IMG/VR virus record: IMGVR_UViG_3300023049_000005 | Coordinates: 73,053-137,052 of that record | Direction: 5' to 3' (one strand) | DNA length: 64,000 bases | Source: a virus | Part shown: in pieces, positions 220 through 24,117 of the stretch | Numbering within the stretch: position 1 is the first letter of the stretch | Layout of the letters: each line of letters begins with the position of its first letter | Program-made: the position numbers and the translations under genes | The notes under the pieces: model-generated | What the model was told of the DNA's origin: nothing | What the model saw: the letters and a program-made list of their open reading frames with translations, nothing else | The model's database searches: none

Positions 220-223
220 TATC

Positions 224-297: not shown

Positions 298-305
298 AAA
301 ATATG

Positions 306-393: not shown

Positions 394-398
394 AAACG

Positions 399-471: not shown

Positions 472-479
472 AACATATT

Positions 480-553
480 CCCTCGTAGCTCAGTTGGTTA
501 GAGCTACCGACTTTTAATCGGTAAGTCACAGGTTCGAGTCCTGTCGGGGGAAC
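480..553 (+). tRNA. tRNA-Lys (anticodon UUU); body closely resembles E. coli tRNA-Lys
   Basis: Acceptor tccctcg/cggggga, anticodon stem accga/tcggt loop cttttaa, T-arm acagg-ttcgagt-cctgt. Confidence 0.7.
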
Positions 554-558
554 ATATG

Positions 559-630
559 GAAACTTAGCTGAGACGGTTTAGCGGAAGGTTGAAGACCTTC
601 AGAGGTGGGTTCGATCCCCACAGTTTCCAC
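559..630 (+). tRNA. tRNA-Phe (anticodon GAA), second copy
   Basis: Perfect acceptor ggaaact/agtttcc, D-stem gctg/tagc, anticodon stem gaagg/ccttc loop ttgaaga, T-arm gtggg-ttcgatc-cccac. Confidence 0.6.
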
Positions 631-636
631 AATATT

Positions 637-710
637 CCTTCGTAGCTCAGTTGGCTAGAGTAACTGACTCTTAATCAGTGGGTCACAGGTTCGAGTCCTG
701 TCGGGGGAAC
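637..710 (+). tRNA. tRNA-Lys (anticodon CUU); paralog of 480..553
   Basis: Acceptor tccttcg/cggggga, anticodon stem actga/tcagt loop ctcttaa, T-arm identical to 480..553. Confidence 0.7.
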
Positions 711-801: not shown

Positions 802-1926
802 TCAAATAATTATTATACCGTCTCTATTAGGCGAAACGCTTAAGATTTTTATTCTCTGATGGAGATTATCTTGTATATAATTAATATATTGTCTAAAGTT
901 AGGATCTTCTAAATCTGCTTTAACCCATGATTTGAAATCATAATATTTACCACCACAATAAATTTTAAGTGGGGTTATATTTTCTAGTACATCAGATTTA
1001 GTCATAATTAAATCAGTTACTCCATTTAATTCTATACTCTCTTTTAATTCATCTAAGTTTAACCAACCACATCTTCTTGGTCTGCCTGTTGTAGCACCAA
1101 ACTCCCCACCTGCCTTCTGTATTCTTTCGCCAAGTTGATTTTTTAATTCAGTTTTCATATCACCATTACCAACTCGTGTTAAATATGATTTAAACACACC
1201 ATATACTTTACCAACACTCTGAGGTGGCATTGCCAACCCTACACATGCACCTGAACTTACTGTATTTGATGAAGTAACATATGGATAAGATCCATGATCA
1301 ATATCTAACATAGTACCTTGTGCGCCCTCTGCTAGTATTTCACCTTCTTGGTTTCTTAACCAATTAGACTTAACGATATTTAATGTTTTAAGAAATTCCA
1401 TACCTACTCTAAAATGTTCGAACTCAAGGAATTCATCTTGGTCTTTACCCATTAAATCAACAGGTTCTATATTTAGATCGTTTCCAATAAAATCCACAAC
1501 TCTATAACCTTCTCGGTATATTTTATCTCGATAACAAGGTCCGATCCCCTTTGGGGTACTACCTATGGTTGACACATTCTCTTTATCTTCCATAAAATGG
1601 AAAGGAGTCACTACGTGTGCGTTTTCTGAAATGAAAATTCTCTCTCTTGCGTTGGGTATATGTTCTTCAACTTCTTTTATTTCTTGCATCAATTGAAATG
1701 GGTCGATAACCATACCATTACCCAAAAAATTCTTTGTGTGTTCATGTACTATACCACTTGGTATTAAGTGTAAAACTATTTTTATTCCATTATGATATAT
1801 CGTATGTCCTGCGTTTGCACCGCCCTGATATCTAGCAACAATATCATATTTTTTAGACAACATATCTGTTATCTTTCCTTTTCCTTCGTCTCCAAATTGA
1901 AGCCCTACTAATACGTCCATAAACAA
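802..1926 (-). CDS. purA: Adenylosuccinate synthetase (PurA family; PurZ-like alternative not excluded)
   Basis: 374 aa; near-identical N-terminal motifs to E. coli PurA (GDEGKGKI, YQGGANAGHT, LHLIPSG), GAQG..LDIDHG.YPYVTSS, GATTGRPRRCGW, TKSD (GTP-specificity K/D retained). Confidence 0.9.
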   Translation of the reverse strand: MFMDVLVGLQFGDEGKGKITDMLSKKYDIVARYQGGANAGHTIYHNGIKIVLHLIPSGIVHEHTKNFLGNGMVIDPFQLMQEIKEVEEHIPNARERIFISENAHVVTPFHFMEDKENVSTIGSTPKGIGPCYRDKIYREGYRVVDFIGNDLNIEPVDLMGKDQDEFLEFEHFRVGMEFLKTLNIVKSNWLRNQEGEILAEGAQGTMLDIDHGSYPYVTSSNTVSSGACVGLAMPPQSVGKVYGVFKSYLTRVGNGDMKTELKNQLGERIQKAGGEFGATTGRPRRCGWLNLDELKESIELNGVTDLIMTKSDVLENITPLKIYCGGKYYDFKSWVKADLEDPNFRQYINYIQDNLHQRIKILSVSPNRDGIIII

Positions 1927-1985
1927 TGATTATTTTATTATTCTATTACTTTAGGGCATATATGTTTAAATAAAACTCTCTTATT

Positions 1986-1996
1986 TTAATATATAA
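1986..1996 (+). promoter_or_regulatory. TTAATATATAA motif 3 nt upstream of start codon
   Basis: Member of recurring start-proximal motif family. Confidence 0.3.
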
Positions 1997-1999
1997 TAT

Positions 2000-2674
2000 A
2001 TGATTAAGAACTTTAAACAATTTATGATAGAAGCAACTTCATATCATAAATTAAATGATGATGATGAATATAATATTACGAAGACTATAAGAGATGATGG
2101 ACATAATTATCAATATTGTGATGGTATATTATACGAACTTTCGGGGAATGATACGAAGGTTAGTGTAGATGAAGTAGAACAAACAGAAGAAAATATGGTT
2201 TATTCAGATCAAATCAAAAGGTATATACAATATTTTAACGAAGGTGGTATAACACAAACTTTCCCTGTTCAATCAAGTCCACTAGGCGACTGTACTAATT
2301 TAGAAGCTATGTTAGAGTATTTAGATGAACCTGATAATTTTGATATGGCTTGGGATCTTTTATCTAAATATCACAGGAAGTTATTTGATATGGATAAATT
2401 TGATATCGTAAGTGATCCTGATTCATTTGGGTTTAATGATGAAATGAAGCTATCACAAATAACTAATATAAAAGATTTAGACGATGCTTATAATGAAGAT
2501 ATAATGGAAGATGAAGACAGAGAAGGTGACTATGATGAAGAATTGTACTTAGGGTTTAGTACTATATTAGAATATTGGAAAGAAAACAAAGAGTATACAC
2601 TTACTGATTTTAATCATAGGTTCGCTGCTTTAGTAGAGATGGGTAGAAAATATATACTAGTAGAAGAGGTATAA
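2000..2674 (+). CDS. Hypothetical acidic protein
   Basis: 224-aa ORF; TTAATATATAA motif 3 nt upstream of ATG. Confidence 0.5.
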   Translation: MIKNFKQFMIEATSYHKLNDDDEYNITKTIRDDGHNYQYCDGILYELSGNDTKVSVDEVEQTEENMVYSDQIKRYIQYFNEGGITQTFPVQSSPLGDCTNLEAMLEYLDEPDNFDMAWDLLSKYHRKLFDMDKFDIVSDPDSFGFNDEMKLSQITNIKDLDDAYNEDIMEDEDREGDYDEELYLGFSTILEYWKENKEYTLTDFNHRFAALVEMGRKYILVEEV

Positions 2675-2706
2675 ATACCAAAAAAAGTAACAAAAAAAAA
2701 CATTTA

Positions 2707-3894
2707 ATGGAAAGATCGATTAATGATATACTAAGGGAACAAAGAGAAAAGAGAGAAGAAGAACAAAAGTTATACGAAGATAAATATACTGAACACCAAA
2801 AGTATATAGAGCATATCAAACCTTTAAGACGAATGTATGAATCTATAGCAGCAGCTTCAACTTCTAACGCAGGTGCAGGTGGTAGTAGAAAAGAATTAGT
2901 TTTAGTTGAAGTAGACCAAGCCGCTACTGATACATTTAGGTATCAACAACCAACAGAATATGATACGATAAACGATTTAATATACTTATCAACCTCTGAC
3001 ACAACTCACAATGATCCATTATATATTACAGAAAGCGATGGACAAGGTAAATTTATCAGCTTTTTAGATACTGGCTATATAGTTCCAATAGCATTCCAAA
3101 CTTCTTATTATAAAGCAAGTACACATAATTTTTATTCTATGACCACAGAAGGTATTGTTGAGGTTAATATATCAGTTGATGGTTTTGCTAATTCTTCAAC
3201 ATCAGCTACGATAAGCTCATATTTTGAGGATCAGTTATATCCCGAAACAGGCATATTTTCAATACTATATGTCGAGGGTGATTTATTATATTGTGTGAAA
3301 TCTTTAGAAAAAGCAGATATCCCAAACGAGTGGTTAGTTATTGACAAATCAACAGGAGATATTATAAGCAGAACAAATACTACATATGTTGGAAACCAAG
3401 AGTTTCAAGCACCACGTGGGTATTTTGATCCTAATACTAACAAGTATTATTTTATACACTTTGCTAACGAGACATCATATTGGGATATAGGTGATGTGGA
3501 AGCTTTTTTCCCACCACCAATTAACCCAACAGGAGTTTTCACATATAGAGTATTTGATTTTAATACTATGACAGAAACTACATATTCTACATTAGATGTT
3601 GGAGTAGCTAAGGAATATTACTTAGGTCGTATAAGAAGAATTGTATCCGAAACTACTTGGGAATTATATGCAAATATCGGAACTACATTCGCTTTACTTA
3701 CAATAGACATAACAACAGGTAAGGTAGTAAAAGAATTAGTTAGTGATAAAGAGTTTCCTACTAACACATCTAATTTTTCTGCTTATCTCACTACTAATCC
3801 AATTATATTCTTTAATGACGTTGGTAGAGGTTCTGAAATTAAAGTTATTATGAATCAAACCGATTTCCGTGAATTAGCATTAGTATTAAAATAA
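2707..3894 (+). CDS. Hypothetical protein
   Basis: 395-aa ORF, tight spacing with neighbours. Confidence 0.5.
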   Translation: MERSINDILREQREKREEEQKLYEDKYTEHQKYIEHIKPLRRMYESIAAASTSNAGAGGSRKELVLVEVDQAATDTFRYQQPTEYDTINDLIYLSTSDTTHNDPLYITESDGQGKFISFLDTGYIVPIAFQTSYYKASTHNFYSMTTEGIVEVNISVDGFANSSTSATISSYFEDQLYPETGIFSILYVEGDLLYCVKSLEKADIPNEWLVIDKSTGDIISRTNTTYVGNQEFQAPRGYFDPNTNKYYFIHFANETSYWDIGDVEAFFPPPINPTGVFTYRVFDFNTMTETTYSTLDVGVAKEYYLGRIRRIVSETTWELYANIGTTFALLTIDITTGKVVKELVSDKEFPTNTSNFSAYLTTNPIIFFNDVGRGSEIKVIMNQTDFRELALVLK

Positions 3895-3945
3895 TATTAA
3901 CTAAGTTATGTTTTTAATATATAAGAAAAATAACCCCTTAGGATT

Positions 3946-4569
3946 ATGACAATATATGATTTACTAAAAGAATACGGATATGATGCAAATGACTTAAAAG
4001 CGAGATTTAAGAATAAGCAAATTGAATTGAATGGCGAAGTAGTGGATAAAAATGAAAAGATTGGTTTTGTAAAAGAAGTTTTTAGTCAAGGATTTTTTAT
4101 GGAAAAGCTATATGAATTACCATTTTATCCTGATTTCTCAGATCAATTAATTTTTATCGGTATTGAAAATTTAATACATGGAGAAAGTAATATCAAAAAT
4201 GAGATGACTGAATTCTTAAAAGATTATAATATGTTAAAAGTATCTAAAACTAAAGCTATTTTCTTTAGTACTTTTGATGAAAAACCTGAAGGTGATACAA
4301 TAAAAATTCAATTCCATGTTGACACTAAAGGTAAGTATGAGCAAGAGTATGAAATACCTGAGGAAAAGGATGAATCAGAAGTTATCGATAAGCTAAAAGC
4401 TGATATCGATAAAGTAGAAAAACAATTATCAAACCCAGGTTTTGTTAACAACGCACCTAAGTTTAAAGTAGATGCTGCTAAGAACAGATTAGAAACTTTA
4501 AAGAAAAAGTTAGCTGATATGGGCGTAAATGAATCTAAAGGTATTAAGAGATTTAAAGACTTTAACTAA
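3946..4569 (+). CDS. Hypothetical protein
   Basis: 207-aa ORF; TTAATATATAAG motif ~20 nt upstream. Confidence 0.5.
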   Translation: MTIYDLLKEYGYDANDLKARFKNKQIELNGEVVDKNEKIGFVKEVFSQGFFMEKLYELPFYPDFSDQLIFIGIENLIHGESNIKNEMTEFLKDYNMLKVSKTKAIFFSTFDEKPEGDTIKIQFHVDTKGKYEQEYEIPEEKDESEVIDKLKADIDKVEKQLSNPGFVNNAPKFKVDAAKNRLETLKKKLADMGVNESKGIKRFKDFN

Positions 4570-4590
4570 TATACTCAGGAGCATGTTTAT

Positions 4591-4833
4591 TTAACATCTT
4601 TCAGCAAATTCTATATTTCCCCCTTCTTCGTTTTCTTTATTTAGATTCATACTGATCCACGTATTTTCATCGGGTTCAGATATATCCTTAGTTGTCTGTA
4701 ATCTATTGTCTGTAATTGTAGGAGCATTAGTCCACGCAAGTTGTCTTCTAGTCCCTGCTTTGAATGCCTCTCTACATTTAATTTCTAATTCTTCTGAGGT
4801 ATATACCTTTTTGTTTTTCGAATCCATAAACAC
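4591..4833 (-). CDS. Hypothetical small protein
   Basis: 80-aa ORF in the gap between convergent/divergent genes; compositionally like neighbours. Confidence 0.35.
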   Translation of the reverse strand: MFMDSKNKKVYTSEELEIKCREAFKAGTRRQLAWTNAPTITDNRLQTTKDISEPDENTWISMNLNKENEEGGNIEFAERC

Positions 4834-4850
4834 AAATGTAATAATATTTT

Positions 4851-5324
4851 ATGTACTTTTGTACTATGACAGAAAATCAATTAAAAAATATCTGTAATTT
4901 TTCATTCATTTTTTTATCCTTAAATATTTATAAAGAGAGTGATATTTATATTTTAGGAAAGTGGAAAGCTATAATTGATGATGGGGATAGAATTATTGTT
5001 GATGATAAAAATAATCCTATTATATACGAAGAAGATATCGTTCCCCATTATATGTTTGGATCAGTAGTTTTAGATTCGAAATTTATTTCTATTTTCTCTT
5101 TATTGTCTGATATAAAAGAGCTATATAGAGATGTCAAATTTACTAGAAGACCATTTACATTAGATAACTTATTAGAAATTTATAGAAAATATATTGATAT
5201 AGAGCTTGTCAATAACCATTATACTGATTTTGTTATTCATGCGAATCTATTACAGTCTAGAAATGAGTGGTTAGAATTTCCTATTAATAGTAGAACATAT
5301 ACCTTAGAATTGTTTACTGATTGA
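4851..5324 (+). CDS. Hypothetical protein (true start may be the internal Met at 4866)
   Basis: 157-aa ORF. Confidence 0.45.
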   Translation: MYFCTMTENQLKNICNFSFIFLSLNIYKESDIYILGKWKAIIDDGDRIIVDDKNNPIIYEEDIVPHYMFGSVVLDSKFISIFSLLSDIKELYRDVKFTRRPFTLDNLLEIYRKYIDIELVNNHYTDFVIHANLLQSRNEWLEFPINSRTYTLELFTD

Positions 5325-5673
5325 GAACTTTATTTAAGTGAGATAACCCGTAATATATCTCGGTTACTCTTACTTTTATAACAGCTTGCCTACCTTGGTT
5401 ATTGTAATTAGCGTTCTTTTTCTTGATAAGTGCAGTTAACCATATGTAATCACCACGACTAATATCTTTAGGTACAGACATATCAAAAGTAACTGCGGAC
5501 TCATCTATTTCACTTTCTTCTAGGTTTTCTTTCTCACTAGTAGATGGATCTTCATCTAATACATCAATGATGTGATCGATTTCCCATTCACTAGGATCAA
5601 ACTTTTCTCCATCTGACTCTTCTTCTGATAAAGAGAGGTCAAAGTCTTTGAATTTTTTAATATTATCTTTCAT
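5314..5673 (-). CDS. Hypothetical acidic protein
   Basis: 119-aa ORF; TATATATA motif upstream on minus strand. Confidence 0.5.
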   Translation of the reverse strand: MKDNIKKFKDFDLSLSEEESDGEKFDPSEWEIDHIIDVLDEDPSTSEKENLEESEIDESAVTFDMSVPKDISRGDYIWLTALIKKKNANYNNQGRQAVIKVRVTEIYYGLSHLNKVLNQ

Positions 5674-5701
5674 ATAGTATATATAAAAGATAGAAGGTCA
5701 A

Positions 5702-6091
5702 TTAATTATTTAATTCACCTACGTAATCTCTGATCTCTCTAATCAACTTAGATTCTTCTACGTTTGGATATTCTCCTTTAAGAGTTTCATATAGCTTGTT
5801 TTCTTCATCTCTTAGATTCTCTATTTTCTCATTAATGGGAATATAAATATGTTCAAGTTTCTTAGATTCTATCTCGAAGTCTTTTAGTTTATCCATGATA
5901 TCTTCTCTGTATTGTTCATCAGAAGTATAATCATCAGTATTATCTTTGATCTTAATAAGACCCTGTAATACTTCTTCGATGCCCGTTTTATTTTTTTCTA
6001 ATTCTTCGGTTAAGTGTCCCATTTGGCTACTCAACTCTAAAAAATCTTTTTTAATCCTTTTGGCTTGTTCTAAATATTTCTTATTTATCAT
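5702..6091 (-). CDS. Hypothetical coiled-coil protein
   Basis: 129-aa ORF, start overlaps stop of upstream gene (ATGA). Confidence 0.5.
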   Translation of the reverse strand: MINKKYLEQAKRIKKDFLELSSQMGHLTEELEKNKTGIEEVLQGLIKIKDNTDDYTSDEQYREDIMDKLKDFEIESKKLEHIYIPINEKIENLRDEENKLYETLKGEYPNVEESKLIREIRDYVGELNN

Positions 6092-7023
6092 GACTTACTA
6101 TTTGATTTTCTGCTTTTAACATATTTTTCAATACTCTGCTTGATTTGATCTTCTAATATTTTAGGATCTTCCATTAACTTATTAAAGATATATCTACTAT
6201 AATATTCAACAGGAGATTCATCGAAATCAAAGTTATCTTCCAAGAACTTAAATACTGTCTTATCGGGTATCTTTTCGTCAATTTTAAGATCTACTTTAAG
6301 GCTATGTGTTTTCTTAGCATTATCATATACTTTATTGCCTTTCTGAACTTCTTGTTGTTCCCTATCTAATCTTTGTTGTTCCCTATCTAATCTTTGTTGT
6401 TCAATTCTAGCATTTACATCTACTGCTTTAGGTTTTTCTTTTTTATCATATGCTAGATCTTCCAATGTAGCATCCGCACTCAGTTTTTCTTTTCCTTTAG
6501 ATGGGTTTGGTGTTTGTTTCCCATACTTATTAAGAAGCTCTTGTTCTTGCTCATCAGGTGTTAACTGTCTAGGTTGATGTTGTTCAACAACACTTGTGTT
6601 ACCAACATTAGGTTGGCGTTTTTCTACAACATTACCACTCATCTTTATATGTGATTGTTGACCATGTAGACCTAAATTAACAGGTGATAAATTAACATCT
6701 CCATCATCCCCAATAGAAATAGATCTATCATTAGTACTAGGGTTTGGGTTAGCGTTATTATTAACACTATTGTTGATACCTTCTAGCATTTGCTCGTATC
6801 TATTCTTAGGTGGATTTGGATCAGGGTTATGTCTTTCGACTACTGATTGGCTTTCGTTTATACTTTGGTTGTTATTGGCTTCACTAATTTGTTTATAAAA
6901 ACTAGAATCAGATAATCTCTCCACGGCTACTCGTTCACCGTTGTTTAATGTAGCGATATTGCTCTCTACGTTTTCAACTTTGACTACCCTTCCTTTACTA
7001 TCTTCAAATTTTAATCCCTTCAT
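6088..7023 (-). CDS. Hypothetical protein with internal tandem repeat (QQRLDRE x2) and N/P/S-rich low-complexity region
   Basis: 311-aa ORF; 21-nt perfect tandem repeat at 6355..6400. Confidence 0.5.
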   Translation of the reverse strand: MKGLKFEDSKGRVVKVENVESNIATLNNGERVAVERLSDSSFYKQISEANNNQSINESQSVVERHNPDPNPPKNRYEQMLEGINNSVNNNANPNPSTNDRSISIGDDGDVNLSPVNLGLHGQQSHIKMSGNVVEKRQPNVGNTSVVEQHQPRQLTPDEQEQELLNKYGKQTPNPSKGKEKLSADATLEDLAYDKKEKPKAVDVNARIEQQRLDREQQRLDREQQEVQKGNKVYDNAKKTHSLKVDLKIDEKIPDKTVFKFLEDNFDFDESPVEYYSRYIFNKLMEDPKILEDQIKQSIEKYVKSRKSNSKS

Positions 7024-7078
7024 AATTAAGGCTTTATTTTACTTATATAGAAAAAAACCACACTTTTGTTTAAAAAAA

Positions 7079-7112
7079 TAAGGGAGAAATATAAAAATAT
7101 TTCTCCCTTATC
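7079..7112 (-). terminator. Rho-independent terminator downstream of the gp32-like gene (aagggagaaatat...atatttctccctt)
   Basis: 13-bp inverted repeat flanked by A/T runs. Confidence 0.55.
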
Positions 7113-7133
7113 AATTTTTGATGACTATTCTTA

Positions 7134-8237
7134 TTAAAAGTCTAGTTCATCGAAGTCGTCGTCACCGACAGTTACTTCATCATCATCAAAACTTTCTAAT
7201 TCATCTGAATCACCACCATCATCCACATCATCAAAAGAGAACTCTTCGGGTTTTGTAGAGTCGTTAGAACTTGAACTACTAAAAGTTTTAGAAGATGCTT
7301 TTCCTGTTAAGAAATCGATAGCTTCTGATACTTTCTTTTGCATTTCTTCGTTCCATGCTTTACCTGCGAAAGATTCTAAATCAATATCTCTTGAAAGTAA
7401 CATGTTAACGATCTTTTCTTGGTGTTCTTTCTTGAACTTACCATCTTCCATAGGAACTCTGATGAATTTATATGATCCATCTTCTTCCTTAGCGATTGGA
7501 ATAGTTGTTGTTTCATCATAGAATCTACTCTTAGTGTAATCAGGAGCAGTAACTTCTTTGCCGTCTTGATTAGTGAAAGTATTCTCTTTGGCTAAAAGAA
7601 CAAAGTCTTTGCCTGTTTTTGGAGAAAATACATCACATGGTACACCTGTTGCTTCACCTTCTTTCTCACTTACGATAATGTCTTTGATTTGCTTTCCGTA
7701 AGAGAAAACCATGATTTTACCAACTAATTCAGGTTGTTGCTCATCTTCCAATATTAATACGTAAGAAAAATATTTCTTTTGGTATTTAATCTGATTAGCT
7801 TTCTCTTTCAAGATTGCGTTATCTGATTTACTTAATTGAAAGTAAGTTGTCGCCAAAGGACCGTACTTATCAGTAGAGTGTGGCTTCATTGTTTTAGGGT
7901 TGATGTTCGTTGGATCATCATAATACCCTCTTACATGAGACATTGCCTCGTTTTGGATATTTAGGTAGTGAGTCACTTTCTCAAAGTGAGCAGGACCTGA
8001 TGCTACTTCCATATCCTCATTGTACTTATCACCCGCATATGCTTTCATATACTCGTGGTTGTTTGTGAAGTTAGGTAGGAAACGCAATTTGGCTCTATAG
8101 CCCCTTGCTTTGTTTTCTGAACTAACTTTTTCTAGGTCTACTCTATATAGACCATCTTGTCCCCTTTCGGTACTTTTCTCCTCAAAGGACGTTTTTTTGC
8201 TTAATTTTTCGTCATCGAATAAATCTTCTGAATACAT
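7134..8237 (-). CDS. Single-stranded DNA-binding protein, T4 gp32-like
   Basis: 367 aa; AKLRFLPNF matches T4 gp32 AVIRFLPSK region; acidic Asp/Glu-rich C-terminal tail as in gp32. Confidence 0.7.
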   Translation of the reverse strand: MYSEDLFDDEKLSKKTSFEEKSTERGQDGLYRVDLEKVSSENKARGYRAKLRFLPNFTNNHEYMKAYAGDKYNEDMEVASGPAHFEKVTHYLNIQNEAMSHVRGYYDDPTNINPKTMKPHSTDKYGPLATTYFQLSKSDNAILKEKANQIKYQKKYFSYVLILEDEQQPELVGKIMVFSYGKQIKDIIVSEKEGEATGVPCDVFSPKTGKDFVLLAKENTFTNQDGKEVTAPDYTKSRFYDETTTIPIAKEEDGSYKFIRVPMEDGKFKKEHQEKIVNMLLSRDIDLESFAGKAWNEEMQKKVSEAIDFLTGKASSKTFSSSSSNDSTKPEEFSFDDVDDGGDSDELESFDDDEVTVGDDDFDELDF

Positions 8238-8404
8238 AATTTAATTACTTTTTTTTTCTGCTAACTCTTGCTAGTTATGCTATTTATGTGCTACTATGTT
8301 ATATAGATTCTTTGTTATAAAGTTTAAAACTAACTCGTTAATTTCCAAATCCTTTAATATAACTTTTTAATATATAAGTAAATAGAAAAAAGTTTTAAAA
8401 AGAG

Positions 8405-9175
8405 TTGAAAATAATTAAAGAATTTTGGGAGTTTTCTAAAAACCTACACAACCACAACGGTTACGTAAAGAGATCACATGAGATGTTAGTTGATGTAATT
8501 GACAAGTTTGTCCCCGAAGAAGGGAAGTGGTTCGAAGATAAAAACAAGAATGCTATCTTCATTAAAAAAGTAGAAGATGGTAAATATTATGGTCACAATA
8601 GAGATGGTCAGGATATTGAAGGAGACGTTCAAGATATCAGAAGTGAATTAACTAATGAATTATACATAGGGAATAATTTTGTAGTAAGTAAAAAATTAGA
8701 TAATAAAAAGCTACAATATGTGGGGGGTGGATCAGAAGCTATTGGAATTTTTACCGATGGAGAATATGCTTATAAAATAATAAGACCTGATTTAGTTCCT
8801 GAAATAGATATTATTAAATCTAAATACGTGAATCTAGGTTGTCCATCCGTGATTAAAATACATGATGCGTGGTTAGAGGAAACAAGAGATGGTTGGGAAA
8901 ATGTTATAATCAAAATGGAAGAACTAGAGCCTTTACCTTTAGAAAAAGTAAAAGATCAAGATGAATTAGAATGGGTAAGAAAAAGACTTTGGGAGTCACA
9001 AGACAACCAAGAACCCATTAAAGATTTAATACACGAAGTAAAAGATCCTGAAACCAAAAAGATGATACAAGCAATTATTGATGCCCAAAAATGTTTAGGA
9101 CATTTGGATATTGGTTTACATAATTTAATGTATGATCCGAAAAATGATCAATATAAGCAAATAGATATCTTTTAA
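8405..9175 (+). CDS. Hypothetical protein (weak kinase-like HLDIGLHNL motif)
   Basis: 256-aa ORF; TTAATATATAAG motif upstream. Confidence 0.5.
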   Translation: MKIIKEFWEFSKNLHNHNGYVKRSHEMLVDVIDKFVPEEGKWFEDKNKNAIFIKKVEDGKYYGHNRDGQDIEGDVQDIRSELTNELYIGNNFVVSKKLDNKKLQYVGGGSEAIGIFTDGEYAYKIIRPDLVPEIDIIKSKYVNLGCPSVIKIHDAWLEETRDGWENVIIKMEELEPLPLEKVKDQDELEWVRKRLWESQDNQEPIKDLIHEVKDPETKKMIQAIIDAQKCLGHLDIGLHNLMYDPKNDQYKQIDIF

Positions 9176-9176
9176 T

Positions 9177-9187
9177 TTAATATATAG
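9177..9187 (+). promoter_or_regulatory. TTAATATATAG motif 3 nt upstream of start codon
   Basis: Recurring motif. Confidence 0.3.
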
Positions 9188-9190
9188 GTT

Positions 9191-11884
9191 ATGAAATTTA
9201 TCAGAAGTAGAAACCAATTCAAAATATTAGAAAATGTACAACAAGCGAAGTCAGTCTTAAAGAAGTTTGATTTAGGTACATCACACCAAGACTATCAAAA
9301 GTTAAGAGAACTTATAGATGATGAGTTTGGTAATTTAAATTACTTGGGTCTTATGACTAAGTATAGATTCGAACAAGAGATTTCTATGGATGAATTAAAG
9401 GATATGTTACCTTGGTTAAAAGATAACGGTAATAGACTTCCAAAGAATCCACTTAAATACTCAGAATTCGAGGAATTAAAGGATGATATTATCACAGTAG
9501 ACAATAAACAAAGAGTAAAAGAAATTTATGATCTATACCCAAGAGCGCAAAAAGACGTAATGAATATAGAAGATGAAGAATTACAGAATAAGTTTTTAAA
9601 AATACATGAGATTAGTAAGATAGACCAATTCAAACAAAAACTATCTTCTTTAAAATCAGAGGAAGATATTAAAAGACATTTAAATGAGTTCATTTCTAAA
9701 TATTCTAAAGACTTAACTGAGTTCGGTACTATACAAAAAATAAAGAAAACGGATTCTAAAATCTTATATAAGAAAGGCGAAATTATAGTAGCTGAGGTAT
9801 TTGATTATCCTGCTTCACAAAAACTAGGATCTTCTAATTGGTGTATATCAACAGGAGAGGGTTCATTTAATTCTTATACTAGGGGAACTAAAAGACAATT
9901 CTTTATGTGGGATTTTTCTTTAGATCAAACTGATCCACTTTTCTTAGTGGGTTTCACTACTAACTCAAACGGAAGTATAACCAATATACATGATATGAGA
10001 GATAAGAGCTTAACAGGTAGTATTCCTGAAAAAGTAAGAACATCAATGTCTTCTATGGATATTTCTATAAAACCATTTGAATTCAAACAGCAGATATTTG
10101 ATAAAGTAGAACGAGAAGATGATTTAGAATTAATCGAATTAGAAAACACTGATTACGTATTACTACACCTAAAAAGTAGTTTATACCTAAATGATATAGT
10201 ATTTAATAGTCTTACTTCATATGATAAGAAAGCAAATAACTATTACTTATATGACTTCAGTAAAGATTTAAATTCTAATGATTTCTTTTGTCATATTAAA
10301 ACAAATGAACTAAAAAGTGTTAAGAATATGACTGCTCATTATGGTACTGATACTAAACATTATGTATTAAATAACGGGAAAGTAACAACAAATGAATTCA
10401 CAACAGAAGAGGACAAGTACATCTTATCTCTTTTCGAAAAAGAAATAACGCCTAAAGACTTAACAAAATATTATGAAGATAAGAAAAAGACCTATTTAGA
10501 CCAATTGGAAGATTTACCCGAAGAGATGGAAAGTCATTGGGGAACATCAAAACTTATTAAGGACACAGATAATCAGTTTTTATACCAAATAGGACATGGT
10601 AGAGATATAGAAAAGTTCAAATTTGATACCGATTATGGAATCAGGTATGACAATAAAAGACAAGACGGCAGCTCTATACATAGTTCTAATCTATATGTTT
10701 TAGTTAATAAGAATTTAGAGCCAATGGATAAAGATTTTATACAAGTAATATATGCTAAAGAAGGAGAATCAACAGTATATTTCCATTCTACTGATGAAGT
10801 AAAAAGAACTATTCCTAATGTAAGTTTACCTAAAGAAATAGGACAATTAATAGAGACGGGTGATATAGTACCTAAATCAGAAGCTGAGGTTAGAAAACAA
10901 ATCAAAGAGAAACAAGACGAATTTTGGGCTGAGGTAGAGGAAAAATATTCAGATCATAGAATAGATACATACGCACAAGCATTATATGACTATTTAGTAG
11001 AAATAGATGAAATAGATACAGAAGATTACCCTGATTATAAAAAAGTAATCATACCTAATGATGCCCATTATGATTTATATCAGTTTTCTATTTATGATTA
11101 TAGTTCAATGATATTAAATCAAAGATATAACGAAAGTAGTTATGCTATTGGTACAGACGATGAAATGGATAAAGCCGCATATGAATACCAAAGCCAATTA
11201 TTAGATGAGTTAGGATATGAAGGAATAAATGGTATTGAACAATTTATAAATGGTGAAGATGTTGCTGATAATTATTTATCAGGTGAACAAAGCTACTTAG
11301 AAGAAATGATTAGAGAAGACCCTGAGTATTATATAGAAAAGAAGAAAGTAGAAGGATATGATGAAAAATATGAAGCCTTAGAGAACCAAAAAGAGAAATT
11401 GGATGATCAAATATATGACCACGAACAAGATATTGAAGAATTCGGAAGAGATATTGAATCGGGTGAATATGATGAAGATTGGATAAGTAAAGCAAAAGAA
11501 GACATCAAAACATTAGAAACTGAAATAGAAGAATATAAAACCGAAATAGAAACCATTGATGAAACCATTGATGAAATGGATGATGAAGATAATGAAGAAT
11601 ATTGGGAATACAGAGAGGAAGATATCGAAGCTAAAGCTGAAGAGTTATATGATGAAAAATATGAAGAAGTAAAGAACGATCCCATAGAATATTTCAAAGA
11701 AATAGGATACGAAGAGTCTGCCTTAGCTAAAGAACTAGCACCTTATATTGATAAAAAAGAAGTCATCGAATATATAATTGATAGTGACGGTAGGTCACAC
11801 GGTTTAGCAGGATATGATGGACAAGAATATTATCATAATTTCGAAGACGAAGATTATTATATCATAATAATTAACAAACACTAA
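9191..11884 (+). CDS. Large hypothetical protein with Glu/Asp/Tyr-rich repetitive C-terminal region
   Basis: 897-aa ORF; TTAATATATAG motif 3 nt upstream of ATG. Confidence 0.55.
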   Translation: MKFIRSRNQFKILENVQQAKSVLKKFDLGTSHQDYQKLRELIDDEFGNLNYLGLMTKYRFEQEISMDELKDMLPWLKDNGNRLPKNPLKYSEFEELKDDIITVDNKQRVKEIYDLYPRAQKDVMNIEDEELQNKFLKIHEISKIDQFKQKLSSLKSEEDIKRHLNEFISKYSKDLTEFGTIQKIKKTDSKILYKKGEIIVAEVFDYPASQKLGSSNWCISTGEGSFNSYTRGTKRQFFMWDFSLDQTDPLFLVGFTTNSNGSITNIHDMRDKSLTGSIPEKVRTSMSSMDISIKPFEFKQQIFDKVEREDDLELIELENTDYVLLHLKSSLYLNDIVFNSLTSYDKKANNYYLYDFSKDLNSNDFFCHIKTNELKSVKNMTAHYGTDTKHYVLNNGKVTTNEFTTEEDKYILSLFEKEITPKDLTKYYEDKKKTYLDQLEDLPEEMESHWGTSKLIKDTDNQFLYQIGHGRDIEKFKFDTDYGIRYDNKRQDGSSIHSSNLYVLVNKNLEPMDKDFIQVIYAKEGESTVYFHSTDEVKRTIPNVSLPKEIGQLIETGDIVPKSEAEVRKQIKEKQDEFWAEVEEKYSDHRIDTYAQALYDYLVEIDEIDTEDYPDYKKVIIPNDAHYDLYQFSIYDYSSMILNQRYNESSYAIGTDDEMDKAAYEYQSQLLDELGYEGINGIEQFINGEDVADNYLSGEQSYLEEMIREDPEYYIEKKKVEGYDEKYEALENQKEKLDDQIYDHEQDIEEFGRDIESGEYDEDWISKAKEDIKTLETEIEEYKTEIETIDETIDEMDDEDNEEYWEYREEDIEAKAEELYDEKYEEVKNDPIEYFKEIGYEESALAKELAPYIDKKEVIEYIIDSDGRSHGLAGYDGQEYYHNFEDEDYYIIIINKH

Positions 11885-11916
11885 ACTTTATTTTATTTAT
11901 TAATATAAAAAGTAAA

Positions 11917-12330
11917 ATGAAAATAGATAAGAGCAATTATAGCCTAGTATTAATGTTTAGTACTGAAGGCAATTACAATGGATCTTTCAACGTTGTATAC
12001 AAAGACAGAATTTTTTCTAAAGAAACTGAAATATATGATGCTTCATATATAACAGAAGAAGAAAAGGGTTATCCTCTTTCTGATACATTGAAAAAGTCTT
12101 TGAAACAAATTGGAGGAATAATAGGAAAGGAATTTTCCAAAAAAGGATATGTTGTTTCTAATATTCATCTAGAATATTCACCCAATAAAGGAAACATTAA
12201 AATAATGTTTGCAACAGGAGATAATACAAACGAAGTTTCTTTTTCACTAATGGAGAATAAGCAAGTGTGTAAAAAGGCATTAAGTCTTTCTAGAAGTATA
12301 TCAAATTATATGATGAAGAAATTAAAGTAA
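11917..12330 (+). CDS. Hypothetical protein
   Basis: 137-aa ORF. Confidence 0.45.
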   Translation: MKIDKSNYSLVLMFSTEGNYNGSFNVVYKDRIFSKETEIYDASYITEEEKGYPLSDTLKKSLKQIGGIIGKEFSKKGYVVSNIHLEYSPNKGNIKIMFATGDNTNEVSFSLMENKQVCKKALSLSRSISNYMMKKLK

Positions 12331-12352
12331 GATTTGGCAAGGTGGTAGTAAC

Positions 12353-12386
12353 AAAAAAGGAGTAGATTTTTCTACTCCTTTTTTGT
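12353..12386. terminator. Bidirectional rho-independent terminator between convergent genes (aaaaaaggagtag-attttt-ctactcctttttt)
   Basis: 8-bp perfect stem flanked by A-run and T-run. Confidence 0.65.
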
Positions 12387-12428
12387 TTTAAACTGTTGTT
12401 AATAATATCTATGGGATTGTGCGTCATA

Positions 12429-13463
12429 TTACTTATTGAACCTAATGAATGCGTTTTGTGTCATATGAACATATTCTGCCTTTCCTATAAATTCAACGAG
12501 ATTGCGTTTACCACAATAACTCATTGCGCTTTTTAAATAGTCTCTGAAATTCTCAGTCCAACCACTAAGAGTATATTCTACTTTGCTATACTTAGTAATA
12601 CCCTCACTAGTGGTTAGTTTTTTCTTTCCCCATTTCTTTTGAACTTCTTTAGTGGACATTCCTCTATAATATGAGAATATAATTTCTCCTTCTTTAAGAA
12701 GTTTTTCGGCTTTGTTGTTAGTTATCTCTATGTAGTTATCTTTTTCTAATATGTATTTAGGTGTACATGATTCTAATGTTTTGTTTAGAATCCCACCTAA
12801 CATAATATAATTTGCGCCAACCGCTAATGCTTTAATAATATCACTGAAGTTTCTAAACCCACCATCAGCTACTATCTTAGTATCATATCCTTTAGATCTC
12901 TTGATCTTAGCACACTCTTCTACCAATGATCCCATAGGATAATGTACTGATGTGTTTGCACTAGTCGTACAAGCAGACCCACCGCCTATACCACAACGCA
13001 CATAGTCTACACCTATTTTACCATATTCTCTAAAGGTTTCAGGGTTAGCTATATTACCTATCATTAATTCTTTATCAGGGAACTTCTCTTTGTATTCCTT
13101 GGATAGATCCAATAATTTTTTCATATGACCATTAGCAACATCTACTAATAATTTTTGTGGTGGGTTTTGGTTAATGCTAATAATATCTTCGAATTCTGAT
13201 ATACTGACAGAGATAAAATACTTATCTACGTCTTCGTTTTTCCATACACTATTAGTATCTTCTGTTCTTGGTATACATACCTCAAATCCCCTTTCTAAGA
13301 ATTTATCATAGTTTTCCATATCTACTACTGTATCCATGGGTGATACGACTAAGGGTAATTTGCCCCCTTTATAGTAGATGTTTACTTCACTTCTAGATTC
13401 TATATCAGAGATTGCTGCAGGAACAATAGTAATATCATTCCAATCGAACTTTAAATTATCCAT
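12429..13463 (-). CDS. guaC: GMP reductase (GuaC; IMPDH/GMPR family without CBS domains)
   Basis: 344 aa; aligns along its length with E. coli GuaC (VDVANGH, GIGGGSACTT catalytic Cys loop, VADGG, YIMLGG, FYRGMS). Confidence 0.8.
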   Translation of the reverse strand: MDNLKFDWNDITIVPAAISDIESRSEVNIYYKGGKLPLVVSPMDTVVDMENYDKFLERGFEVCIPRTEDTNSVWKNEDVDKYFISVSISEFEDIISINQNPPQKLLVDVANGHMKKLLDLSKEYKEKFPDKELMIGNIANPETFREYGKIGVDYVRCGIGGGSACTTSANTSVHYPMGSLVEECAKIKRSKGYDTKIVADGGFRNFSDIIKALAVGANYIMLGGILNKTLESCTPKYILEKDNYIEITNNKAEKLLKEGEIIFSYYRGMSTKEVQKKWGKKKLTTSEGITKYSKVEYTLSGWTENFRDYLKSAMSYCGKRNLVEFIGKAEYVHMTQNAFIRFNK

Positions 13464-13642
13464 ATTTATATTTTAGATTTTTCGGTATAACACCAAATCT
13501 TATATAAATAGAAACAGAAAAAGTTTCGATATATCGAGTAAAATAATTTAATATATAGTTTAATAGACGAGACAATAGGAAATAAGAAAAAAGTGAGAAA
13601 AAAACAATAATATATATTATAGAAAAAATAAAAGAAATTAAT

Positions 13643-14932
13643 ATGATTAATTTAAAATTAGAGCTTTATAACTTCAAAAAAGGTCTAGACTTCGAAGAAC
13701 AAGAGGATATTTCAAGAATAGTTGAAACACATTTCAACCATGTAGGAAATTATTCTGAGAAACAAATAATAAGATCTCTTAATGAGAAATTATCAGTTCA
13801 TACTTATGATAAGAGCGTGATATCTCTATTAGAGAACCTTAACACAGACTTAAAAAGTAATGAGTTAATTTATGACTTAAAGGATTTATTTAAGATCATT
13901 GAATCAAAAAACCAAGGAATGATTTACAGACAAGCACTTAATGTGTTGTTAGAAATCATTAACACTGAGGATGAATCAGATGTAAAGAATAAGATATTGA
14001 ACGAATTGGCACTCCATGACTGGGTTCCTGAGATCAAAGTATTTTTACATAACTTACACAGCAATCCTGAAAAGAAAAACAACTTACTTAACGGTGGTGA
14101 AGCAAGCAACTTATTTACAATTGTAGAACAAGTTGAAAACGGACACGTTGCTTTAATTGATAGCAATTGGTTTTTCTTAGGGGAAGACAAAGTAGAAAAA
14201 ACATTATTAGAAAACCACATTAAGGAAGCTGATAAAGTTGCTACATTACGTCAATTACAAACAGCATTAGAATATGCTACTATCTCAGAACATAGAATTG
14301 ATTTCAAATTAGATGAAAACATTACAGTTGGTATTTCAGTAGATGAAAACTCAACTTTCATTAATGAAGATAAATTAGAGAAGGAAACTTCAATTGAGAA
14401 TTTATTTAACTCTCCAATTGTACCTATCGCTAAAAAGACTTTCTTCCCATTAATTAAATCAATTTCTGAGAACAAAGATAAGATCGTTGATCTAGATGTT
14501 GTTAAACATGTTTCTAACGTAGGAAATCCATTTGTTGAATGTTTTGCTTTTAATCATGGAAATGAAGTTTATCTATACAGAAAAGATTCTAGACAAGGAA
14601 CAAGTTTCTACAAATATGAATCAGCGACTGAATTAGTAAATGACGTGAAAAACGATTTACAATATGATCTAACTTATTTCTTTGAAAATAAATTAGACAA
14701 AGAGGTTATTAAACACAGAAAGTTAGAAGATAAGATCAGAGAGCTTGAAGTAAGCTTAGATGATATCGAAACTAATAAAGAAAGGGTTGACGCTAATATC
14801 AAAATGATAGGCGAAAGCGAAGTATTAGACAAAGCTTTACAACTCTTAGAAAAAAAGAAAGAAGAAGTTACTTCTGAGCTTAATGCTGCTAAAAGAGTAA
14901 TGTCTGATTCTAGAGAGAAAAGTTTTTCATAA
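13643..14932 (+). CDS. Hypothetical protein with C-terminal coiled coil
   Basis: 429-aa ORF. Confidence 0.5.
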   Translation: MINLKLELYNFKKGLDFEEQEDISRIVETHFNHVGNYSEKQIIRSLNEKLSVHTYDKSVISLLENLNTDLKSNELIYDLKDLFKIIESKNQGMIYRQALNVLLEIINTEDESDVKNKILNELALHDWVPEIKVFLHNLHSNPEKKNNLLNGGEASNLFTIVEQVENGHVALIDSNWFFLGEDKVEKTLLENHIKEADKVATLRQLQTALEYATISEHRIDFKLDENITVGISVDENSTFINEDKLEKETSIENLFNSPIVPIAKKTFFPLIKSISENKDKIVDLDVVKHVSNVGNPFVECFAFNHGNEVYLYRKDSRQGTSFYKYESATELVNDVKNDLQYDLTYFFENKLDKEVIKHRKLEDKIRELEVSLDDIETNKERVDANIKMIGESEVLDKALQLLEKKKEEVTSELNAAKRVMSDSREKSFS

Positions 14933-22419: not shown

Positions 22420-24117
22420 ATGGCGAGCTATAATCCGAATAACAGTCCAAGTTGGAGTAATAATAACACAGGAAATCAGGGATTTTTTTCGAGAGCGTTA
22501 AGAAACATCAGCAGTTGGGGCATGTACTACAATGACATGGTTTCTAAAAACAAAGTAACTATTGGTATAAATGAAGATCCTAATCAGATGTCAGGTAATG
22601 GTGGGATGTATGATTTCTTTTCACAGAGAGCCATTGCTTCTATATTAAGTCAAAAATCAGTTGCGTACTTAGATAAGAGCGTTAATGATAAAATAAGAAT
22701 ACTTAGAGAATATAGTATAAAAGACGAAATAAAAGATTTCGTAACTACTATATGTGATGAGGCTATTATTTATGATGATGAAAGAAGATTCTGTGAGCCT
22801 AAAAAACTAAAAGACGATTATCCACAAGAGGTAAAAGATAGATATTATGAGATATTCGAAGAGGTGTATAACAACTTTAATTTCTCAAATGGAAAAAGAG
22901 CTTGGGATATATTCAGAAGATTCTTAATTGATGGATATGCTGCATATGAAATTGTATGGGATGATAAAGCACAGAATATAATTGGATATGAAGAAGTAGA
23001 ACCTGTTACTCTAATGCCTGGCTATGAACCTGAATCGGGTACACATATTTGGATACAGTTTCCCGAAGACCCAACATTAAGAAGAGTGATATTAGATAGC
23101 CAAATCATATACCTTTCTTATAAATCTCATAACGAATATTCGGAGATGTCATACGTTGAGGGATTAATTAGACCATATAACCAACTTAAAATAATTGAAC
23201 AAAGTAAGATCATATTTAATATGGCTAATGCTACAATTTATCAAAAGTATGTAATACCTGTTAAAGACCTACCTAGACAAAGAGCAGAAGAAAGTGTTGG
23301 TAAGATGATTGCTAACTATTCAGAAGAAGTGAGTTGGGATGATACTATGGGTGTTCCTGAGATTAACGGAAGTAAGCATATACCTTATAATAAACAATTA
23401 TGGTTTCCTGAGGGAGAAAGTGGTACGCCACAATTTGAATTAATATCACCTGATGGTCATAACTTAAATGAAAACGATATGTTGACATGGTTTTATAATG
23501 CTTTAAAAAGAGCTAGTAATATCCCATTCTCAAGATTTGATAAAGATAATGGTGGTGGAGATATTTATGATAACAGTTCTGGAATGACTAACGATGAAGT
23601 AAAATTTGGAAACTTTGTAGGAAGATTAAGAACATCTTTTAAAGAAGTTGTTATTAAACCAATGAAACTTCAGATGCTTAGAGAATTTCCTGAGTATAAA
23701 GAAGACGCTAAACTATTAAATAGTATTGATGTAGAGTTTAATTCTAACGATCTATTCGAAGAATGGAAGCGAATTAACAACCTAAACAAACGTGTTGAAA
23801 CTGTACAGAAATTAGCAGATGCTATTGAAATAGATGGAAGACCTTATTTCCATCCTGAGTATATAGTTGATAAATACTTAAAACTTACTGAAGAAGAAAA
23901 ACAAGAAAACGAAGCATATTGGAAGAAGAAACCAATTAAAGGAGACGCAGGCGATGGATCAGGAGGTGGTGACAGCTTTGGTGGTGATGATGACTTTGGT
24001 GGTGGAGACTTCGGTGGCGATGACGATTTCGGTGGCGGTGAAGATCTAGGTGGAGAAGACCTAGGCGGTGGCGCAGATGAAGGCGGTGGAGAAGACGTTG
24101 GTGATTTCGAATTCTAA
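22420..24117 (+). CDS. Portal protein, T4 gp20-like, with Gly/Asp-rich C-terminal repeats
   Basis: 565 aa; NQLKIIEQSKIIFNM / KDLPRQRAEESVGKMIAN parallels T4 gp20 NQLKLLEDAVVIYRI / GNMPARKAAEHMQHVMN; position in portal-protease-scaffold-MCP module. Confidence 0.7.
   Translation: MASYNPNNSPSWSNNNTGNQGFFSRALRNISSWGMYYNDMVSKNKVTIGINEDPNQMSGNGGMYDFFSQRAIASILSQKSVAYLDKSVNDKIRILREYSIKDEIKDFVTTICDEAIIYDDERRFCEPKKLKDDYPQEVKDRYYEIFEEVYNNFNFSNGKRAWDIFRRFLIDGYAAYEIVWDDKAQNIIGYEEVEPVTLMPGYEPESGTHIWIQFPEDPTLRRVILDSQIIYLSYKSHNEYSEMSYVEGLIRPYNQLKIIEQSKIIFNMANATIYQKYVIPVKDLPRQRAEESVGKMIANYSEEVSWDDTMGVPEINGSKHIPYNKQLWFPEGESGTPQFELISPDGHNLNENDMLTWFYNALKRASNIPFSRFDKDNGGGDIYDNSSGMTNDEVKFGNFVGRLRTSFKEVVIKPMKLQMLREFPEYKEDAKLLNSIDVEFNSNDLFEEWKRINNLNKRVETVQKLADAIEIDGRPYFHPEYIVDKYLKLTEEEKQENEAYWKKKPIKGDAGDGSGGGDSFGGDDDFGGGDFGGDDDFGGGEDLGGEDLGGGADEGGGEDVGDFEF

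Follow-up and report, generated by a model that had tools for sequence, protein, structure and literature searches.

A predicted adenylosuccinate synthetase and a probable GMP reductase in an AT-rich jumbo phage: a possible route from guanylate to adenylate

In many huge phages, the genome includes genes for making purines and pyrimidines and for interconverting nucleotides (Al-Shayeb et al., 2020; PMC7162821); guanosine monophosphate (GMP) reductase and adenylosuccinate synthetase are not mentioned in the main text of that study (PMC7162821). The adenylosuccinate synthetase gene, purA, is routinely listed as a viral auxiliary gene, and annotations reading "GMP reductase" already exist for the phages XacN1, Cr30, phiYS40, and G. 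No paper discussing a phage-encoded GMP reductase, alone or paired with PurA, came up in full-text literature searches. Here we describe a 64,000-nucleotide stretch of viral DNA (IMG/VR record IMGVR_UViG_3300023049_000005, positions 73,053 to 137,052; hereafter the window), which encodes a PurA homolog and a member of the inosine monophosphate (IMP) dehydrogenase/GMP reductase (IMPDH/GMPR) superfamily, referred to below as the GMPR-like protein (Table 1). We favor, with modest confidence, the picture of two intact purine-interconversion genes in separate transcription units whose products would shift purines from guanine toward adenine nucleotides.

Both proteins can be set against well-described enzymes. 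Bacterial PurA (EC 6.3.4.4; Escherichia coli 1ADE, Helicobacter pylori 6ZXQ) has the same fold as the window PurA and 36-40% identity to it. The PurZ and PurZ0 enzymes of Z-genome phages (phiVC8 6FM1, S-2L 7ODX, Archimedes 7VF6) belong to the same superfamily, are of comparable compact size, and are phage-encoded like the window PurA. GMP reductases (GuaC) of type 1 (E. coli/human GMPR) and type 2 (Bacillus/Listeria) have the same CBS-less barrel as the GMPR-like protein and a similar length.

The PurA homolog and the GMPR-like protein

A preliminary description of the window, made from its letters, had placed a purA gene at 802..1926 and a guaC gene at 12429..13463. Both open reading frames (ORFs) are present on the minus strand, but the PurA start at the TTG at 1926 gives way to the ATG at 1920, which is likelier according to the public gene call and all homologs. 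The PurA homolog scored 400 bits with Pfam PF00709 (Adenylsucc_synt; gathering score 27). With the NCBIfam PurA equivalog models (PF00709/TIGR00184 family) it reached 392.1 bits against a cutoff of 402 and 363.5 bits against 395.55, falling just short because model positions ~347-430 are left unaligned by a C-terminal deletion common to the phage clade. A search of PDB sequences recovered H. pylori adenylosuccinate synthetase (AdSS; 6ZXQ/7PVO) at 302 bits over the full length, and the AlphaFold2 (AF2) model (predicted local distance difference test score, pLDDT, 82) matched solved AdSS structures in Foldseek with TMq values of 0.84-0.88 and E-values of 1e-35 to 1e-30. In a neighbor-joining (NJ) tree, the protein lies in a compact phage clade (356-414 amino acids) that adjoins Bacteroidota PurA and the PurA of a 735-kb megaphage; the Bacteroidota enzymes are its nearest cellular relatives, with 44-48% identity.

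To examine the active site, the window protein was aligned with 27 close relatives, with PurA from Salmonella and from Bacteroidota, with PurZ0 from Arthrobacter phage Huntingdon, and with PurZ from Burkholderia phage Bm1. The window PurA and its 27 clade relatives all keep the equivalents of D13, K16, N38, H41, T129, R143, Q224, and T239, as well as those of T300/T301, R303, R305, K331, D333, and S414. The catalytic base Asp13, the catalytic acid His41, and the P-loop Lys16 correspond to D11, H39, and K14 of the window protein, D11 and K14 lying within its GDEGKGK motif (residues 10-16), and are invariant in 28 of 28 clade sequences; the loss of Asp13 or His41, which the preliminary description had named as a way for the enzyme to be inactive, is thus not seen. 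The pocket for IMP and aspartate (Asn38, Thr129, Arg143, Gln224, Thr239, Thr300/301, Arg303, and Arg305) is the same as in E. coli and Salmonella PurA and does not vary within the clade. The guanine-specificity elements are likewise clade-invariant and comprise TKSD at 307-310 (K308, D310), which bears out the TKxD motif noted earlier, and S361, the equivalent of Ser414. All catalytic, IMP, aspartate, and GTP-specificity residues are therefore shared with bacterial PurA. The window protein differs from bacterial PurA in being phage-encoded and 40-60 residues shorter; relative to E. coli PurA, the entire phage clade lacks ~343-367 and has smaller deletions near 120-125, 165-185, and 385-392. 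Taken together, these data indicate that the window PurA is very probably a true, ordinary GTP-dependent adenylosuccinate synthetase with an intact active site, and profile, PDB, tree, and Foldseek results all side with the earlier PurA call.

The GMPR-like protein matched Pfam PF00478 (IMPDH/GMPR) at 140 bits and PHROG 9582, which is labeled "dehydrogenase". When aligned to GuaB, it shows no CBS insert and carries the Cys loop GIGGGSACTTS, in keeping with the CBS-less enzyme with a catalytic-Cys loop described before, and its AF2 model (pLDDT 89) adopts a TIM-barrel ((beta/alpha)8) fold. The catalytic residues Cys186, Thr188, and Glu289, in the numbering of human GMPR2 mapped on Salmonella GuaC, correspond to C165, T167, and E287, so that the catalytic cysteine, whose possible loss had been raised, is kept. 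Among 119 clade members, the equivalents of Cys186, Asp219, Met269, Ser270, and Glu289 are invariant and that of Thr188 is found in 117; the G268-M269-S270-T271 segment is likewise invariant in the clade. With both GuaC types, the GMPR-like protein has in common Asp219 and the Cys186/Thr188/Glu289 residues, along with the GMS motif and the N-terminal SRSE; its flap is likewise short, and its C-terminal tail is similar to theirs.

Several traits set the clade apart from described GMP reductases. In BLASTP, the protein matched Salmonella GuaC at 107 bits (27% identity), Listeria type-2 GuaC at 101 bits, and E. coli GuaB at 72 bits, and is thus further from either GuaC type (101-107 bits) than type 1 is from type 2 (142 bits). 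Compared with GuaC, it has an insertion of ~14 residues at 236-262; flap residues K272, Q275, and W278 are invariant within the clade and absent from the GuaC references; and Arg286 is replaced by Lys in most clade members and by Thr in the window protein. Its features, weighed against those of IMPDH below, make GMP reductase the probable activity of the 12429..13463 product.

Linkage, distribution, and the proposed rerouting of guanylate to adenylate

If both enzymes act as predicted and are expressed during infection, the cysteine of the GMPR-like protein would attack C2 of GMP, ammonia would leave, and NADPH would reduce the resulting thioimidate, giving IMP and NH3. PurA would then turn IMP, aspartate, and GTP into adenylosuccinate, GDP, and Pi, host PurB would release AMP and fumarate, and host kinases (adenylate kinase) together with ribonucleotide reductase (RNR) would carry the product on to dATP. 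A ribose-phosphate diphosphokinase (phosphoribosyl pyrophosphate [PRPP] synthetase, Prs), which passes its NCBIfam cutoff (339.7 against 297) and is encoded ~5 kb beyond purA, could feed IMP production by salvage or de novo synthesis. IMP would thus be pulled toward AMP and dATP whether it came from GMP, salvage, or de novo synthesis, and both phage steps would consume guanine nucleotides, since the first takes GMP as its substrate and the second uses GTP as the phosphoryl donor. The likely benefit would be a supply of A nucleotides for a genome of 70% A+T: A makes up 36% and T 34% of the phage genome, and the GC content measured for the window, 29.7%, agrees with the ~70% AT given in the preliminary description. 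Such a route would do for purines what dCMP deaminase and thymidylate synthase together do for pyrimidines.

Linkage of the two genes was counted by alignment-based scans with a 10-kb reach at the best 80 viral (IMG/VR) PurA loci and at the 80 closest IMG/VR loci of the GMPR-like gene. A sister contig of 27,801 bp holds both genes in the same synteny, with amino acid identities of 76% for PurA and 59% for the GMPR-like protein, and both genes also occur, far apart, on two huge IMG/VR contigs (436 kb and 508 kb). The GC content at third codon positions (GC3) is 0.21 for purA and 0.27 for the GMPR-like gene, and the mean for the other genes of the phage is 0.22. Both values lie within the phage range, which argues against recent capture and against contamination, and, together with the synteny kept in the sister contig, this indicates that both genes are long resident in the phage. 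An IMPDH/GMPR-family gene lies within 10 kb of purA at 6 of the 80 PurA loci (L039, L054, L087, L088, L092, and L102), which represent about four lineages; the PurA of all six keeps Asp13, and the partner is type-2 GuaC-like in L039 and a CBS-less protein without the Arg-Tyr dyad of IMPDH in the other five. In the phage genome collection, any detectable member of the IMPDH/GMPR family occurs in 67 of 50,697 whole records. The repeated independent pairing of both activities in viruses plausibly supports a functional link through IMP, one that does not tell a reductase from a dehydrogenase.

The gene at L039 (IMG/VR 3300023174_000033, 464,605 bp; positions 12653-14400) has a peculiarity of its own. 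This type-2 GuaC-like gene, 1.4 kb downstream of PurA, is broken exactly at the catalytic loop, where ...GIGPG is followed by the intein-like start CFIPTSEV...; past in-frame stop codons, a second ORF reads ...IIVHN and then SACTT...ADGG...EG. The break looks like a split or degenerate intein within a phage GMP reductase.

The GMPR-like clade is large, with 4,930 matches at E <= 0.001; the best 120 of these show 54-63% identity, are ~338 amino acids long, and lie on contigs of up to 634,780 bp. The closest relatives among annotated phages are those of the huge phages LR745206, LR756504, LR756502, and LR756500 (45-56% identity), followed by the crAss-like phage cr108_1 (gp050; 43%) and 15 Lak phage genomes (~34%). 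Homologs with 40-43% identity were also found in metagenome-assembled genomes (MAGs) of Bacteroidales (Draconibacterium, Prolixibacteraceae-type) when one genome per prokaryotic species was scanned, two of them on complete chromosomes with ordinary chromosomal neighbors. All 80 IMG/VR loci with a GMPR-like clade gene have a GC content of 26-33%, and the Bacteroidales chromosomal loci with homologs have 42-50%. We tentatively suggest that the clade may be a third, uncurated type of GMP reductase, shared by Bacteroidales and thousands of AT-rich phages and here joined with PurA and Prs for guanylate-to-adenylate rebalancing; this is an idea about which we remain rather doubtful. If it is correct, such rebalancing would help genomes of 26-33% GC to replicate on hosts of 42-50% GC, and in the window lineage a phage-encoded PurA and PRPP synthetase would strengthen the step that follows.

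Contigs of 22-32% GC with a phage-type GMPR-like gene (L184-L187, L208, L217, L219, and L221-L223) carry MAG labels of Methanobacterium, Peregrinibacteria, Paceibacterota, Gammaproteobacteria, and Muiribacterium. These are probably pieces of phage genomes that were binned with cellular DNA by mistake.

A number of observations weigh against a dedicated route from GMP to AMP. The two genes lie 10.5 kb apart and cannot be co-transcribed, since the stretch between them contains genes on the plus strand (2000..5324 and 8405..12330) as well as a strong bidirectional terminator (7077-7112); a promoter scan was uninformative, with fewer sigma-70 sites than in shuffled sequence. PurA is absent within 10 kb at the two closest GMPR-like relatives on long contigs and at all 80 of the closest IMG/VR GMPR-like loci. 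Where the closest GMPR-like genes lie in complete genomes (huge phages, Lak, and cr108_1), those genomes are not among the records with a canonical PurA match, and the two genes thus form an optional pair rather than a conserved module. Genes for PurB, adenylate kinase, and RNR were not seen in the ~84 kb examined. The 80 loci behind the correlation with GC content are mutually related, and phages are generally AT-richer than their hosts. That the host belongs to the Bacteroidota is suggested solely by the origin of the best cellular homologs, which for PurA and the GMPR-like protein alike come from that group.

Alternatively, the two could be unrelated auxiliary genes that serve separate purposes. 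On that account, the GMPR-like enzyme would lower guanylate, GTP, or (p)ppGpp with no channel from G to A, and PurA, Prs, and the NUDIX hydrolases would restore adenylate or ATP after host shut-off or after an ATP- or NAD-depleting defense. In its favor are the distinct transcription units 10.5 kb apart and the fact that members of the GMPR-like clade far outnumber phage PurA and usually occur without it, and the two NUDIX genes, a NADAR-family gene, and Prs nearby also fit ADP-ribose or NAD metabolism. Against it stands the fact that IMP is the product of one enzyme and the substrate of the other, a coupling through the metabolite pool that needs no genetic linkage; moreover, co-localization of PurA with an IMPDH/GMPR-family gene at 6 of 80 viral loci is far above the frequency of that family in phage genomes. 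We therefore give the account of separate purposes a minor, though real, share of probability. The GMP-to-AMP route put forward in the preliminary description thus retains the support of conservation in the sister contig, occasional pairing, the nearby Prs, and AT-rich carriers, but it finds none in co-transcription, in the neighborhoods of the closest GMPR-like genes, or in complete genomes.

Alternative activities of the two enzymes

The GMPR-like gene could instead encode a minimal IMP dehydrogenase converting IMP to xanthosine monophosphate (XMP), with which the phage would boost both branches from IMP and convert no G to A. GMPR is favored over IMPDH because the protein is CBS-less, aligns to GMPR models end to end, has GuaC-like termini, a short flap without the Arg-Tyr dyad, and a GMS motif, and because of the order of its BLASTP matches. 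IMPDH requires an Arg-Tyr dyad on a long mobile flap for thioimidate hydrolysis. In the GMPR-like protein, the flap between GMS and SEG spans ~15 residues, compared with ~17 in GuaC and ~23 in IMPDH, and its sequence ...STKEVQKKW... offers no equivalent of the dyad found in ...SSDRYFQ... of E. coli GuaB and Campylobacter jejuni IMPDH. The flap opens with GMST, as against GMSS in GuaC and GMGS in GuaB, and thus has Ser at the position equivalent to Ser270. The N-terminal SRSE and the C-terminal QNAFIRFNK tail resemble those of both GuaC types and not those of GuaB, and the C-terminal ...ESHVHDV-type segment of IMPDH is missing. The GMP reductase model aligns over residues 3-338 (model positions 6-340 of 347), whereas the IMPDH model TIGR01302 (113 bits; cutoff 481.5) aligns to the core only (residues 89-244).

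The assignment to GMP reductase is weakened by the low scores of these matches and by structure. The four NCBIfam GMPR models gave 118.7, 113.3, 107.2, and 98.4 bits against cutoffs of 397, 344, 492, and 466, all below threshold and nearly level with the IMPDH score, and the Bacteroidales chromosomal homologs and the cr108_1 protein also remain below all NCBIfam cutoffs. Against PDB sequences, the protein scores ~95 bits with IMPDH catalytic domains and with human GMPR2 alike; in Foldseek, a CBS-deleted IMPDH core and GMPR1 both have a TMq of 0.79, so that GMPR cannot be separated from IMPDH by fold, and CBS-deleted IMPDH catalytic domains are the top matches of both searches. For the PurA-adjacent family genes at L087, L088, L092, and L102, the IMPDH core model gives higher scores than the GMPR models do, and no biochemically characterized member of the clade was found in the literature. 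The preliminary description, in which the protein matched GuaC along its length, is accordingly right about the extent of the alignment, but the match is weak, and its GuaC call keeps the support of the diagnostic features and lacks that of any curated cutoff or of the fold search. On this evidence, we consider an IMP dehydrogenase unlikely.

A GMPR-like enzyme that acts on another 2-substituted purine nucleotide, deoxy or modified, or that yields a new product through the Cys-C2 thioimidate chemistry, is less probable still. Such an activity might be read from the uncurated status of the clade, from the invariance of K272, Q275, and W278, which the GuaC references lack, and from literature searches that returned no biochemical data on the clade. 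However, the Cys/Thr/Glu triad fits ordinary binding of GMP or IMP, as do the glycines that bind phosphate and the Asp that binds ribose (D200), the chromosomal homologs in free-living Bacteroidales suggest a housekeeping role, and no modification genes lie nearby.

For PurA, the alternative is a PurZ or PurZ0 enzyme, which would join dGMP and aspartate to form succino-2-aminodeoxyadenylate in a phage with a 2-aminoadenine (Z) genome. Phage PurA homologs are often PurZ, the protein is as short as PurZ (372 amino acids), and its PHROG 1211 match, at 311 bits, carries the label "2-aminooxy adenylosuccinate synthetase". Nevertheless, 99% of the true PurA clade have Asp13, all 147 phage PurZ/PurZ0 sequences have Ser in its place (PMC12884076), and the window PurA has Asp at this position, Thr300 in place of Val, and Lys331 in place of His or Phe. 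Its GDEGKGK motif contrasts with GSEAKG in PurZ0 of Huntingdon and GSTGKG in PurZ of Bm1, all residues that bind IMP and aspartate are of the PurA type, and identity to PurZ/PurZ0 in Foldseek structural alignments is 18-22%. The NCBIfam PurZ model gave 146 bits (cutoff 300), compared with 392 for PurA. PurZ0 (7VF6) and PurZ (6FM0, 7ODX) were matched at 55-65 bits through the N-terminus only, and Foldseek E-values for PurZ0/PurZ were 1e-17 to 1e-12, at best ~1e-17 compared with ~1e-35 for AdSS. The NJ tree sets the window PurA far apart from both PurZ and PurZ0 and beside Bacteroidota PurA. No HD/DatZ, MazG/MazZ, family-A polymerase, dUTPase-like, or NDT-like domain was recorded among the called genes of the window and its 10-kb left flank, in agreement with the absence of Z-pathway genes noted earlier, and DatZ-, MazZ-, DpoZ-, DutZ-, and DmtZ-like domains were not found in the ~84 kb. 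We therefore reject the Z-genome reading on sequence grounds, as highly improbable.

The preference for canonical PurA over PurZ expressed in the preliminary description is thus upheld by residues, profiles, PDB matches, tree, and fold alike. That the window PurA is no marker of a Z genome is the main practical result, albeit a negative one. Since the PHROG 1211 label is attached to a protein with canonical PurA residues, automated annotation based on PHROG would mislabel the window PurA and wrongly suggest a Z genome; annotators should inspect position 13 (Asp or Ser) before naming a protein PurZ.

Genomic setting and comparison with known phages

The element is a phage, because it encodes a T4-type portal, a prohead protease, a gp23-type major capsid protein, a large terminase, and a gp32-like single-stranded DNA-binding protein (SSB) (Table 1). 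The window PurA is identical to the public gene call P0121 on a 206,690-bp ENA contig (ERZ27315366 k141_4805), and the same protein is encoded on a 270,756-bp contig; apart from a 42-nt indel, the window corresponds in reverse complement to ~29.9-93.9 kb of the 206,690-bp contig. It comes from the genome of a T4-like jumbo phage, which has ~30% GC and a length of at least 206-270 kb. The indel falls in the prohead-protease-like gene, which encodes 748 amino acids in the window and 734 in the ENA contig (L007 12220-14424), and is the sole length difference noticed between the two assemblies of the same phage. When the first 20 kb were compared by megablast with 50,697 phage records, no close relative was returned.

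Table 1. Features of the window and its left flank (coordinates refer to the window unless a locus is named).
Feature	Position	Strand	Remarks
purA	802..1920	-	372 amino acids, begins MDVLVGLQFGDEGKGK; predicted IMP + Asp + GTP -> adenylosuccinate
guaC-like gene, CBS-less IMPDH/GMPR-superfamily enzyme	12429..13463	-	probable GMP reductase; predicted GMP + NADPH -> IMP + NH3
Ribose-phosphate diphosphokinase (PRPP synthetase, Prs) region	L004 16324-17247 and 15390-16250		5-6 kb past left window end; adjoins sigma-70 region 2 protein gene, then DEAD_2 helicase
Six-tRNA array	223-710	+	Lys(UUU) x3 (one 89 nt), Phe(GAA) x2, Lys(CUU)
Val-tRNA-synthetase C-terminal arm domain gene	3946-4569	+	
gp32-like SSB	7134..8237		between purA and guaC-like gene
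Tandem NUDIX hydrolases	17868-18317, 18336-18779	-	4.4 kb from GMPR-like gene
T4-type portal	22420..24117		
Prohead protease	24639..26885		
gp23-type major capsid protein	26981..28693		
Accessory genes	30989-31504 (-), 31574-32404 (-), 24119-24493 (-), 19612-20148 (-), 32927-33481 (+), 35726-36097 (+)		set: NADAR-family, Band_7, staphylococcal-type nuclease, TnsA-like endonuclease N domain, NIF/FCP1-like phosphatase, hotdog thioesterase
tmRNA	32488-32861	-	ARAGORN prediction, tag peptide VVSEKIDVLDALDSTESVQDGELVLAV
Large terminase	42229..44466		

The tRNA array lies directly past the purA stop codon, and every tRNA in it decodes an AT-rich codon family, which fits an AT-rich codon demand. The NUDIX pair is conserved in the sister contig, with weak best matches to RNA pyrophosphohydrolase, MutT, and ADP-ribose-type families, and the NADAR-family protein matches a riboflavin-intermediate N-glycosidase domain at 135 bits. 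In the sister contig (L006 7530-8159 and 11134-12321), purA is flanked by HisRS-like and AspRS/AsnRS-like (tRNA-synt_2) genes, which are absent in the window. On another jumbo contig, a PurA of the same clade stands beside dCMP deaminase, its counterpart among the pyrimidines, which serves C-to-T conversion. For the large neighboring ORFs (9191..11884, 13643..14932, and others), searches of Pfam, PHROG, and PDB gave nothing usable; an ATP-grasp candidate among them was set aside as an unsupported, faint match (E = 0.0075).

The phages with an annotated "GMP reductase" or "dehydrogenase" (cr108_1, Lak, Bacillus phage G, XacN1, Cr30, and phiYS40 with its gene 017) are all AT-rich or relatively so, and several of these genes have thymidylate synthase or other nucleotide genes close by, at a distance of a few kb. 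A general link to thymidylate synthase, seen in cr108_1, L001, phage G, XacN1, and phiYS40, was not retained, since none of the 80 closest IMG/VR loci has it within 10 kb. No canonical PurA match was found in cr108_1, Lak, phage G, XacN1, Cr30, or phiYS40 within the phage genome collection. If the GMPR-like protein is a GMP reductase, its carrier phages would actively turn G nucleotides into A nucleotides, and the base composition of phages would thereby be tied to their auxiliary metabolism in a simple biochemical way.

The annotated enzymes do not all belong together. A typical type-2 GuaC is encoded by gp120 of phage G, and the genes of XacN1 (ORF403) and Cr30 (gp025) are type-1-like, whereas the genes of cr108_1 and Lak are of the same clade as the GMPR-like protein. 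The family is widespread in AT-rich gut and environmental phages, crAss-like and Lak phages included, and the closest database relatives of both window proteins are found in huge phages (LR7565xx, LR745206) of the set described by Al-Shayeb et al. (PMC7162821). The modest added value of the present analysis lies in recognizing a widespread, uncurated GMPR-like clade that is occasionally paired with PurA. Purine and pyrimidine genes are already known from huge phages, and the finding extends that picture and does not change it.

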